NCBI GenBank assembly: GCA_000004985.1
Contig: GG738854.1
Source: Naegleria gruberi
Lineage: Eukaryota
Direction: 5' to 3' (one strand)
Length of the DNA stretch: 64,000 nucleotides
This document shows, piece by piece, positions 46,345-49,177 of the stretch; positions within the stretch are counted from its first letter, which is position 1; every line of letters begins with the position of its first letter. The notes beneath the pieces were generated by a model. The model worked only from the letters and a program-made list of their open reading frames with translations. It ran no database searches and was not told the origin of the DNA. The position numbers and the translations under genes are program-made.

Positions 46345-47472
46345 CTAGTTGAATGTATTCCACAAATTCATCAAAGTTCTGTCCTTAATAGAATAAGGAA
46401 CATCCAAAATTCCTCTCAAAATCTTGAGCATATCTAACCCCATCGTTAGTCCAAGGAAACCAGCAATTTCACCAAACAAACTTTCAATTGAAGAAGTGAC
46501 AACCTCGGTAATGTAATTCACATTCAATGTAGCGTATGCAACAGATATCACAACCAATGTTTCGTCTGCTCCAATTAGCTCAACATCAGAAGTTACAGGC
46601 TCCCATCTAACATCGACTAATTGTGGATTAATAGGAGTTGTTTTTAATCTTGAAGTGATAATTTTGGTCAACATGAAATAATTGTCTCTTCTTGGAACTG
46701 CAAAGTTTGTTTCTCCAACTAGATCAGGCATTGTTCCATTTGAATGGAATGACACCTGCAGGCCAACTCTCGAGTAGTCGCTTACATCTGATCCTGTTGG
46801 TCTTGGTACTCGAACAAAGAATGACAAACTACCAGTATAACCTGTATAATTTGCAGTCACAACATTAATGGATCGATTGTTGAAAACATAGCACCTAAAC
46901 AATGAATCATCTTGTCGTATTTCCTTATATTCAGCTTGTTGTAGGTATTCAGGAATATCTTTTTGGATATCAGCCCTAAACACTTTCTCCAATCTCAGCC
47001 CACAATAACTACAGTTATTTGTTAGTGCATTCCAATTACAAATTGAAATAGCTGGAAAGGGAAGCGGTACCTCCTCAACATATGACAAAGAGGTGGTTGG
47101 ATTATTAATCGCATCCACAAAGTTCACAATTGAATTAATCGAATACCATAACGAAACACCAATCATTACAATCCAACCAATAGCTGTTAATATCTGATAC
47201 CATCTCAGAGGTATCTGCCATCCACAAATAGTTCTCTTTCTTTTGTGCTTTTCAGATTCTGCAGGCTCATTATTTCCAAATTGATTATTCGTATTATTCT
47301 TAGATTTGTTTCCTCCAATAATTACATCAAATAAGGATAAATTCTTTGAGGATTTTCTTTTCGATAATTTCTTTCCAATTGTTGGAATTTCCACTTCATG
47401 AGGTGAATCCAATCGGGTAGTATTTTGTTGAGCAACTTGTTGAGGGTTATTTGAAGAATTATTCTTCATCAT
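46345..47472 (-). CDS. Miniature DEG/ENaC/ASIC-like two-TM channel subunit (paralog A)
   Basis: 375 aa, true ATG at 47472. Cytoplasmic N-terminus; TM1 ILTAIGWIVMIGVSLWYSI; post-TM1 strand LPFPAISICNWNALTNNC (ASIC/ENaC hallmark FPAVT.CN.N); ectodomain of about 230 aa; pre-TM2 VVISVAYATLNVNYITEVV...LFGEIAGFLGLTMGL (compare ASIC LDIFFEALNYETIE...[16 protein letters not shown]). Confidence 0.6.
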   Translation of the reverse strand: MMKNNSSNNPQQVAQQNTTRLDSPHEVEIPTIGKKLSKRKSSKNLSLFDVIIGGNKSKNNTNNQFGNNEPAESEKHKRKRTICGWQIPLRWYQILTAIGWIVMIGVSLWYSINSIVNFVDAINNPTTSLSYVEEVPLPFPAISICNWNALTNNCSYCGLRLEKVFRADIQKDIPEYLQQAEYKEIRQDDSLFRCYVFNNRSINVVTANYTGYTGSLSFFVRVPRPTGSDVSDYSRVGLQVSFHSNGTMPDLVGETNFAVPRRDNYFMLTKIITSRLKTTPINPQLVDVRWEPVTSDVELIGADETLVVISVAYATLNVNYITEVVTSSIESLFGEIAGFLGLTMGLDMLKILRGILDVPYSIKDRTLMNLWNTFN

Positions 47473-47912
47473 CAGTGATAAGATAAGGATTCGAGGTGTT
47501 ATTTCCTACTCCAAATACAACTTGTGGTGTTGGTGTCATTACGAAATTTTGTACATCCTGTGATATAGGTTGGCTAAAGCTCTCCACGGTTACTGTTTTA
47601 TGATTCCTCATTGCTTCATTCTCTATCACTTGAAGAATAATATCTTGTGCCCTAGTTTGTCTATCCTCAATTTCCTCTATTTTTGGAGTCAAGACTACTT
47701 CATCATCCCGATAAATATTTGAATTATTTGAAATTTGATATTCTTTAACTGGAGAAGATATAGATTCTTGTTCGGAATGATCTTGTTGATTTAGTTGTTG
47801 ATGATTTGTAGGCGACGATGGTCTATACAAATCTCTCACCACTGAAGAACTAACCTTCTGAAAGAATGGATCGTCTTCAACGGGCATAATCTCTGGTGCA
47901 CTTTTCATCTTT
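47459..47912 (-). CDS. Upstream acidic/Ser-rich ORF overlapping the channel start by 14 nt in a different frame; either a separate small gene or the channel's 5' region with a 1-nt indel
   Basis: First ATG gives MKSAPEIMPVEDDPFFQKV...PYLITDDEE* ending at 47459, whereas the channel ATG is at 47472. No intron can be placed between them. Confidence 0.25.
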
Positions 47913-48010
47913 TTTTTAAGGTTGAATTTGTTTGGCTGAACATATAAATTTACTGTATTTGAAAGTGGCGGGAAGAATGGTTGTAGAATTTGTAAGGAAC
48001 TTGAAAAAAA

Positions 48011-49177
48011 ATGCTGAACAAGAAAAAGACGGTTCAATTCTCTGATATTTTAAAAGAGGAGGTGGAGAATGATGTTTATTCAGTACAAAAAACAACTTCA
48101 ACCAAGGCCAATAATACTGCTACTACTATTTCTCCAGAGGATATCAAGTCGATCAAGGAAAAGTTGGAAAAACCAATTTCTAGAGAAGTTGCTATGGAAA
48201 TTAAAAAGAAGGCGATATTAACTTCGGATAGTGATGCTGTGCAAGATTATTTATTTGAGGAAGATGGTGGACAGGAAGGCGAGGAGGAAGAGGATCCGAG
48301 TGATTGTTTGGAAAGAAGAATAGGAGTTAAAGTTAAGGATGTGATTTTGATTTATGCATGGTTGATATTGGGAGCATTATTGATTTATTATGTTTATTCA
48401 TCAGTTAATACCTATGTTGTGGACAGAAACAAGCCAGCGACCAATGTTGCATACACAGCTCAATCAAAACTCTCATTTCCTGCTGTCACAATATGCAATT
48501 GGAATACTGGAGATGATCCTGTGAATGATATTGCCTTGGATTATTGTTTTCATGCAACGTCAAATGATTCAACTCACGAAGAATGCAAATTTCCAATTAC
48601 AAAGAAGAAAATTGTTAGTGGAGATCAGATTTTCTCCTGCCTAGTTCTGAATAATGACACCAGAACTCCTCTCCAAGCCACAAAAACAGGTTATTTGGGC
48701 ACCATCTCTGTAATTGTGACCATCAAAAATGTTACATTATCCTCTGGAGAGATTAGATCCTCTGGAGTCCAAGTTACCTTCCACAATATTGGAGAAACAG
48801 CACAAGATTTGCTTCTCAATGAAACAAAGTGTGCAACTCCAAACTTTGATAATAATTTCTCAATTTCTAAAGTTGTGAGCCACACCATTAGACCAACACC
48901 ATTTACCAAAACTTTTTGGGAATCCTCTTATTCAGCAGTAGAATTGGTAAAACAGAGGAATAACAAGATTATGGTTTCATTTGCTTACAACACGCTGAAC
49001 ATACAACAGGTAACAGAATATGAAGCAAGTAACTGGCTACAATTATTAGGAGAAATTTCAGGCATGGCCAGCACACTTTATGGATTTGGATTTGTTATGT
49101 TTTGGAGAACATGTTTGTGGTTACCAATAGCAATCAAGAAAAAGTCTGTAAAGGTAGTTTGGGAGGAGCTGAACTGA
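48011..49177 (+). CDS. Miniature DEG/ENaC/ASIC-like two-TM channel subunit (paralog B)
   Basis: 388 aa, true ATG at 48011. TM1 VILIYAWLILGALLIYYVYS; post-TM1 LSFPAVTICNWNTGDDP; ectodomain colinear with paralog A (TGYLGTISVIV..VQVTFHN..); pre-TM2/TM2 MVSFAYNTLNIQQVTEYEASNWLQLLGEISGMASTLYGFGFVMFW. Confidence 0.6.
   Translation: MLNKKKTVQFSDILKEEVENDVYSVQKTTSTKANNTATTISPEDIKSIKEKLEKPISREVAMEIKKKAILTSDSDAVQDYLFEEDGGQEGEEEEDPSDCLERRIGVKVKDVILIYAWLILGALLIYYVYSSVNTYVVDRNKPATNVAYTAQSKLSFPAVTICNWNTGDDPVNDIALDYCFHATSNDSTHEECKFPITKKKIVSGDQIFSCLVLNNDTRTPLQATKTGYLGTISVIVTIKNVTLSSGEIRSSGVQVTFHNIGETAQDLLLNETKCATPNFDNNFSISKVVSHTIRPTPFTKTFWESSYSAVELVKQRNNKIMVSFAYNTLNIQQVTEYEASNWLQLLGEISGMASTLYGFGFVMFWRTCLWLPIAIKKKSVKVVWEELN

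Follow-up and report, generated by a model that had tools for sequence, protein, structure and literature searches.

The stretch of DNA analysed here (the window) comprises 64,000 nucleotides of contig GG738854.1 from Naegleria gruberi (assembly GCA_000004985.1). It carries two divergently oriented genes, denoted gene 1 and gene 2, whose products p1 and p2 are almost certainly members of the DEG/ENaC channel family, in sequence and in fold. The two open reading frames (ORFs), 46345..47472 on the minus strand (375 amino acids, p1) and 48011..49177 on the plus strand (388 amino acids, p2), lie exactly where a preliminary description, made from the DNA letters, had placed them. The proteins are paralogues with 30% identity over 293 amino acids (E 1e-39). 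p1 is 100% identical to a 501-amino acid "predicted protein" (denoted P0001) on a 665-kb N. gruberi scaffold and p2 is identical to the 388-amino acid N. gruberi model P0004. Both RefSeq models already carry the ASC family PF00858 in their precomputed annotation.

The whole channel core of p1 is encoded by the main exon of gene 1 (46345..47463, minus strand), which can also be read as the 375-amino acid ORF starting with an ATG at 47472. Joining this exon across a predicted 58-nucleotide GT..AG intron (47464..47521, minus strand) to a 5' exon (47522..47908, minus strand) reproduces P0001 exactly. The 5' exon encodes a low-complexity, cytoplasmic N-terminal extension of 129 amino acids and lies in a frame that remains open for 192 codons at 33% GC. 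Since so long an open frame is very rare by chance in A/T-rich DNA, and since the joined product matches P0001, we consider most of the sequence between the two ORFs to be coding. The spacer of less than 600 bp given in the preliminary description thus holds as the ORF-to-ORF distance (538 bp), but the 5' exon and the intron of gene 1 fill most of this gap, leaving an A/T-rich intergenic region of only 102 bp between the divergent start codons (47909..48010). This region is presumed, from its position, to act as a shared bidirectional promoter. Gene 2 consists of a single exon (48011..49177, plus strand).

A search with the profile hidden Markov model (HMM) of Pfam ASC scored p1 at 54.4 bits (E 1.4e-14) and p2 at 35.2 bits (E 9.6e-9), the gathering cut-off being 23.6 bits. 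In both proteins the match begins at profile position 19-24, and all 50 aligned members of the short-form family described below matched the same profile. An AlphaFold monomer model covering the p1 core (290 residues), calculated from the 50-sequence alignment, had a predicted local distance difference test (pLDDT) score of 93.2 and a predicted template-modelling score of 0.83; it replaced an earlier run with 3 sequences, discarded with a pLDDT of 51. The model predicts a long first transmembrane helix (TM1, core residues 6-38), a beta-rich domain with two short helices, a second transmembrane helix (TM2) that is split in two at the sequence G-L-D (core residues 244-259 and 263-279), and a short C-terminal helix (core residues 283-289). 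Foldseek aligned the model with ASIC1 and ASIC2 at E values of ~1e-14 and TM-scores of 0.70-0.74 (query-normalised). The palm/beta-ball beta-core and the TM1/TM2 topology of ASIC are therefore present in the predicted structure of the p1 core, in agreement with the two-TM layout proposed in the preliminary description. The ectodomain between the helices is shorter than the ~230 amino acids proposed there: from the end of the first helix at core residue 38 to the start of the next at 244 the model leaves ~205. N-glycosylation sequons are found in the sequence of the loop between the two TM helices, which would fit an extracellular or lumenal location.

The motif that follows TM1 is kept in both proteins. 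In p1, TM1 spans amino acids 92-124 (47101..47199, minus strand; hydropathy peak at 94-119) and is followed by the strand FPAISICNWN at 139-148 (47029..47058, minus strand), whose Cys145 lies in the segment that aligns to human ASIC1a LTFPAVTLCNLN. In p2, TM1 was placed at amino acids 108-140 (48332..48430, plus strand) by a hydropathy segment at 104-132 and by alignment to p1, and the strand FPAVTICNWN occupies 156-165 (48476..48505, plus strand), as given by the motif position and the same alignment. A second conserved cysteine, Cys194 of p1, lies in FRCYVFNN (46876..46899, minus strand), aligning to GKCYTFN of ASIC1a; the corresponding strand of p2 reads FSCLVLNN. These two cysteines, of FPAxxxCN and xCYxFN, form the only invariant columns among the 50 sequences, and Cys145 and Cys194 are likely to pair in a predicted disulfide. 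In ASIC1, the two equivalent cysteines form the single disulfide located outside the finger and the thumb.

Cysteines are otherwise nearly absent, as the preliminary description had noted. The extracellular part contains 4 in p1 and 5 in p2, as compared with 14 in ASIC. Alignment of the family profile with human ASIC1a falls into three blocks, namely TM1 with FPAVTLCN, the beta-ball/palm part from GKCYTFN to past the VQIH strand, and the last strand with TM2. Between them, ASIC1a residues ~114-199 and ~292-410 (about 85 and 120 residues) are skipped, the short forms having ~30 residues in place of each. From what is known of the ASIC1 structure, we take these two skipped parts to be the finger and the thumb/knuckle regions. 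The core is correspondingly small, with 290 residues in the p1 model versus 424 for ASIC1. The ectodomain of the short forms is thus the palm/beta-ball beta-core only; in the animal channels, finger, thumb and knuckle belong to the periphery and do not define the core. The HG dipeptide is likewise missing from p1, from the 501-amino acid model of gene 1 and from p2, bearing out what had been said of the N-terminus. At the other end, both proteins and most of the family terminate in a hydrophobic-Asn(-Gly) motif on a short helix ~20 residues past TM2 (46348-46374, minus strand, with the sequence LMNLWNTFN in p1; 49148-49174, plus strand, in p2). We know of no counterpart of this helix in animal channels.

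The segment leading into and including TM2 is also retained. It includes SLFGEIAGFLGLTMGLD in p1 (amino acids 331-362; 46387..46482, minus strand), where it was located by the helices of the model, by alignment to ASIC1a and by the column counts and carries G334-E335 and the helix break, and QLLGEISGMASTLYGFG in p2 (amino acids 344-375; 49040..49135, plus strand). Both proteins have a glycine at the degenerin site followed by an acidic gate residue (G334-E335 in p1, G-E in p2). Among the 50 members the degenerin-site column holds G in 41, A in 6 and S in 3, the acid column holds D in 27 and E in 16, and conservation extends to the TM2a glycines at +4, +7 and +11. The selectivity-filter belt, which the preliminary description took to be contained in this segment, is different. 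At the position of the G-A-S belt of ASIC, p1 has G345-L346-D347 (46432..46440, minus strand), as placed by the alignment, the model and the column counts, and p2 has G-F-G (49082-49090, plus strand). The family consensus at the belt is G-[LI]-D (G in 46/50, L or I in 39/50, D in 35/50), and a lysine follows three residues later in 36/50 members. Whereas p1 fits this G-L-D...K consensus, p2 is one of five members with a glycine at the position of the belt aspartate and the sole member (n=50) with a methionine at that of the lysine. Despite the loss of G-A-S, a helix break is predicted at the belt in the p1 model.

Taken together, the short forms resemble ASIC1 and ASIC2 (PF00858; 6ave, 7cfs and 9e4a) in the two-TM topology, the FPAVT(I/L)CN strand past TM1, the palm/beta-ball beta-core with its cysteine pair (in FPAVTLCN and in GKCYTFN), a G-D/E gate where TM2 begins, the glycines of TM2a and a TM2 that breaks at the glycine belt. 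They differ in that the Naegleria proteins have neither HG nor finger, thumb and knuckle, and hence no acidic pocket; in the belt, which is G-L-D (p1) or G-F-G (p2) instead of G-A-S; in TM2b, where short forms carry Lys and Arg at the places of Thr and Glu in ASIC; and in the conserved C-terminal helix with its hydrophobic-Asn end. Compared with the alpha, beta and gamma subunits of ENaC (6wth and 6bqn), p1 and p2 have no GRIP, finger and thumb periphery, no protease activation and no G/S-x-S filter.

The absence of the G/S-x-S filter and of the HG motif means that the conduction properties of the animal channels are not transferable to p1 and p2. Along with the divergent TM2 of p2, it would also suit descendants of the family that no longer conduct and serve as membrane receptors or adhesion proteins. 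We regard this as very improbable, since 50 divergent members show strong conservation of the pore residues in TM2a, of the belt glycine and of the helix break, a pattern to be expected of a working pore.

The extent of the short-form family was revealed when 1.84 billion representatives were searched exhaustively with an HMMER profile: 235 matches had E<=1e-3, and 93 of them reached E<=1e-10. Almost all of these 93 are 300-400 amino acids long and align with the profile from end to end. Proteins of animal length appear only from ~E 1e-9 onward and align in two or three stretches. A word-indexed homologue search yielded 3-4 proteins (from N. gruberi and Willaertia magna), even with the 50-sequence profile. 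N. gruberi has at least 10 copies on several scaffolds, and named members are also found in N. fowleri, N. lovaniensis, Willaertia magna and the amoebozoan Ceratiomyxa fruticulosa. Other members include a cluster with Tara Oceans sequences and numerous short contigs, the majority of them from JGI/IMG and ENA; one of these environmental contigs is evidently eukaryotic, as a CEP104 gene adjoins the channel gene. Two N. gruberi models deviate in length. P0002 (492 amino acids), from the 665-kb scaffold to which the window belongs, merges two channel copies that lie in tandem, and P0010 (1563 amino acids) has the channel core at its C-terminus only; judged by their sequences, both look like annotation artefacts or fusions.

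The window itself is of non-animal origin, as the preliminary description had argued. It belongs to the 665-kb N. gruberi scaffold, has a GC content of 30-39%, and also carries genes for ordinary proteins of eukaryotes (cullin, F-box, homeobox, WD40, RabGAP and polyubiquitin) as well as the Trk-type potassium transporter reported there (TrkH, PF02386, 95.8 bits, at 23834-25429 on the minus strand). These genes, together with the relatives in N. fowleri, N. lovaniensis and Willaertia, led us to reject metazoan contamination. The family could still have come from an animal by a recent lateral transfer and been reduced afterwards, so that the genes would be uninformative on how the family first arose. 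The patchy distribution outside animals would suit such a transfer, which a 2023 survey left open (PMC10507113). We give it very little credence: the scaffold is of normal composition, relatives occur in three Naegleria species, in Willaertia, in Ceratiomyxa (Amoebozoa) and on many environmental contigs where the neighbouring genes are eukaryotic, the short forms resemble each other more than they do any match of animal length, and the Naegleria paralogues have diverged deeply (30% identity).

The preliminary description spoke of a head-to-head duplication. That p1 and p2 are divergent paralogues stands, but a local or recent duplication does not. A first neighbour-joining tree of all 50 sequences suffered from saturated distances and very low support and was replaced by a neighbour-joining tree restricted to 25 close members, with 500 bootstrap replicates. 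In this tree p1 falls into a subclade denoted A1 (bootstrap 85%) and p2 into a subclade denoted B (75%), both of them old, and the two proteins were sisters in 0 of 500 replicates; a recent head-to-head duplication was therefore rejected. Members of A1 and B are direct neighbours in four independent loci including the window, three head-to-head and one tandem, with spacers of 43-102 bp. The other three, all environmental, are a head-to-head pair with a 74-bp spacer in L004 (1739-3738) and L005 (303-2302), a head-to-head pair in L008 (1-1246), where the A1 gene is cut by the contig end, and a tandem pair of direct neighbours in L007 (1126-3312). The A1 proteins of these three loci are 46-54% identical to p1. 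From these sequences, the window pair is one case of an old, retained neighbourhood.

A further pair of short forms lies in tandem in N. fowleri (L002, VFQX01000053, 8772-11264). Its proteins of 342 and 350 amino acids are 52% identical and belong to two other subclades. Synteny with the window pair was considered and rejected, as orientation, neighbours and subclades all differ. A hybrid histidine kinase adjoins the pair in this species, which is a human pathogen.

The conserved adjacency of A1 and B, the shared 102-bp spacer and the degenerate belt of p2 suggest that p1 and p2 are co-expressed and possibly co-assembled. The two genes may, on the other hand, encode independent homotrimeric channels, their adjacency being the leftover of an ancient tandem duplication with no functional coupling. 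This alternative, which we hold possible but not the likelier course, draws on the size of the N. gruberi family (at least 10 copies on several scaffolds), on adjacent copies being common in both orientations, including the fused two-copy model P0002, and on the existence of solitary A1-type or related genes. It accounts less well for the A1/B neighbourhood at four loci, where the A1 proteins share only 46-54% identity, a retention beyond that of usual chance tandem arrays, and for p2 having neither the belt aspartate nor the lysine kept by 35-36 of the 50 members, which fits an accessory subunit.

Beyond ASIC and ENaC, the short forms show a relation to the PAC channel (TMEM206, also called ASOR; 7jna, 7ji3 and 8h8d). 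PAC has a similar length of ~350 amino acids and likewise consists of a bare beta-core with two TM helices. In a PAC structure paper, PAC and ASIC/ENaC were described as having no discernible sequence homology, their similarity was ascribed to structural convergence, and PAC was described as conserved in vertebrates (PMC7904269). A short-form family profile (A3), built on window positions 46348-47217, matched PAC chains (PDB sequences) at E 7.9e-13 for Xenopus and ~3e-9 for human, in two collinear stretches that correspond to TM1 with the post-TM1 strand and to the last strands with TM2. With hhalign, the comparison to human PAC (sequence identical to 7jna_A) gave a probability of 87% over 230 columns. 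Human PAC scored 39.2 bits against the profile, while the maximum among 2000 copies with a shuffled ectodomain was 14.4 bits. As shuffling the ectodomain cuts the 39 bits to 14.4 or less, the match is not a pure artefact of transmembrane composition. The isolated PAC ectodomain scored only 12 bits, indicating that the TM-proximal strands carry the signal. At the level of sequence profiles, the short forms therefore look like a bridge between DEG/ENaC and PAC, two families called unrelated in the structural literature on PAC; we found no paper stating such a bridge in a limited literature search.

Given this relation, p1 and p2 could work like PAC instead of like Na+ channels, being acid-gated, anion-conducting and possibly located in endosomes or the contractile-vacuole system. 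The PAC matches of the family profile and the conserved Lys and Arg just below the belt speak for such channels. Several observations make this reading unlikely. ASIC and ENaC outscored PAC in every comparison, and Pfam TMEM206 (PF15122) gave no match to p1 or p2 at E<=10, nor to the 50 members at E<=0.01. Human PAC, in turn, scored 564 bits against TMEM206 and had no match to Pfam ASC even at E<=10. PAC differs in having neither the FPAxxxCN cysteine motif nor a glycine-rich TM2a. It is anion-selective through Lys319, and the hhalign alignment stops just before this residue, with the conserved lysine of the short forms about one and a half turns lower. Finally, the acidic G-[DE] gate and the belt aspartate favour cations.

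Considering these results together, we favour, with a probability of roughly 60%, the view that p1 and p2 are subunits of short-form ion channels of the DEG/ENaC superfamily that are trimeric, probably cation-conducting and possibly heteromeric. Each subunit would consist of a disordered cytoplasmic N-terminus, TM1, an extracellular beta-core of ~205 residues, a TM2 interrupted by the belt, and a short C-terminal helix. By analogy with all solved members of the fold, three subunits would come together about a central, TM2-lined pore, giving a channel that is presumably not gated by voltage. The acidic gate residue and the belt aspartate suggest conduction of cations, and a working cation channel is probable. 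Neither an acidic pocket nor a protease-sensitive finger nor peptide sites can be used for gating, as the short forms lack the respective domains; gating would instead have to proceed through the palm and wrist, as in PAC, or through the membrane, in response to protons, membrane tension, or ionic or osmotic conditions. If p1 and p2, presumably expressed together, were joined in a heterotrimer, p1 would be the canonical pore subunit and p2 a modifying subunit, although we hold the heteromer itself to be doubtful.

Several points weigh against this view. p1 and p2 have no classical G/S-x-S filter and no HG gating motif, and the belt aspartate is followed by conserved Lys and Arg; given these basic residues below the belt, anion or mixed selectivity is conceivable. 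Solitary A1-type or related genes exist (L006 and Willaertia L001), the adjacency of A1 and B could be a relic of tandem duplication, and the subclades come from neighbour-joining trees only, with moderate support.

The presence of ASC-family genes in Naegleria is already known and catalogued. ENaC/degenerin was reportedly found in N. gruberi by Studer et al. 2011, with vertical inheritance and lateral transfer both discussed, and those genes are very probably the same N. gruberi genes as p1 and p2. That report is not known to cover the minimal architecture, the belt motif or the paired subclades. A 2022 paper with an HMM-based count of ASC domains included N. gruberi, and its text is silent on ASC-family genes there. 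In a 2023 phylogeny, Deg/ENaC outside the Metazoa was listed only for Tunicaraptor, Cafeteria and Symbiodinium (PMC10507113). These homologues, like p1 and p2, are members from unicellular eukaryotes and likewise leave a choice between an ancient origin and lateral transfer; the survey weighed massive gene loss against lateral transfer. Its BLASTp searches included Discoba, and no candidate from that group was listed. Our own search of the literature on Naegleria or Heterolobosea for channels of the ENaC, degenerin or amiloride-sensitive type found no relevant paper, and a limited search found no description of the minimal architecture, the belt motif, the paired subclades, the environmental breadth or the PAC link. 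The genes pointed out in the preliminary description are thus real family members and its interpretation is supported, none of the outcomes that it had named as refuting having been observed, but the novelty it implied was too high, as PF00858 already stands on the public models. The value lies in the follow-up, the short-form family and its relation to PAC, rather than in the discovery of the genes.

For the question of how DEG/ENaC channels originated, the Naegleria genes and the ~90 short-form clusters provide a concrete, testable substrate, and several Naegleria species have members, the pathogen N. fowleri among them. A minimal channel of ~290 residues represents the beta-core common to ASIC, ENaC and PAC, and such a subunit would be a convenient scaffold for studies of gating without peripheral domains. 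A further-reaching view, which we hold possible but less likely than not, is that the short forms are not reduced animal channels but the ancestral eukaryotic core of a single DEG/ENaC-PAC superfamily, a core found widely among free-living protists (Heterolobosea, Amoebozoa, and environmental and marine lineages). ASIC and ENaC, by adding finger, thumb and knuckle, and PAC would then be derived forms, the A1/B pair would be an obligate heteromer, and the G-[LI]-D belt would represent a selectivity mechanism unseen in characterised members.

Other genes of the window were noted in passing. Directly downstream of gene 1 lie two abutting ORFs in different frames (45444-45908 and 45905-46342, plus strand), the first with a calcineurin-like phosphoesterase domain; they are probably a single gene split by a short intron or a frameshift. 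The ORFs at 43579-44355 and 44458-45012 (minus strand) match the C-terminal and N-terminal halves, respectively, of the PhoPQ-activated pathogenicity-related family (PF10142), and probably form one split gene of this mostly bacterial family in a eukaryote. At 39831-41222 (plus strand) a protein of 463 amino acids carries a plasmid pRiA4b ORF-3-like domain (PF07929), which is better known from bacteria. Proteins with NHL repeats and a BTB domain are encoded twice, at 54132-56411 (minus strand) and at 19636-20742 with 21057-21881 (both minus strand); in the latter case NHL and BTB are divided between two neighbouring ORFs, which suggests that this gene type is duplicated and contains an intron.

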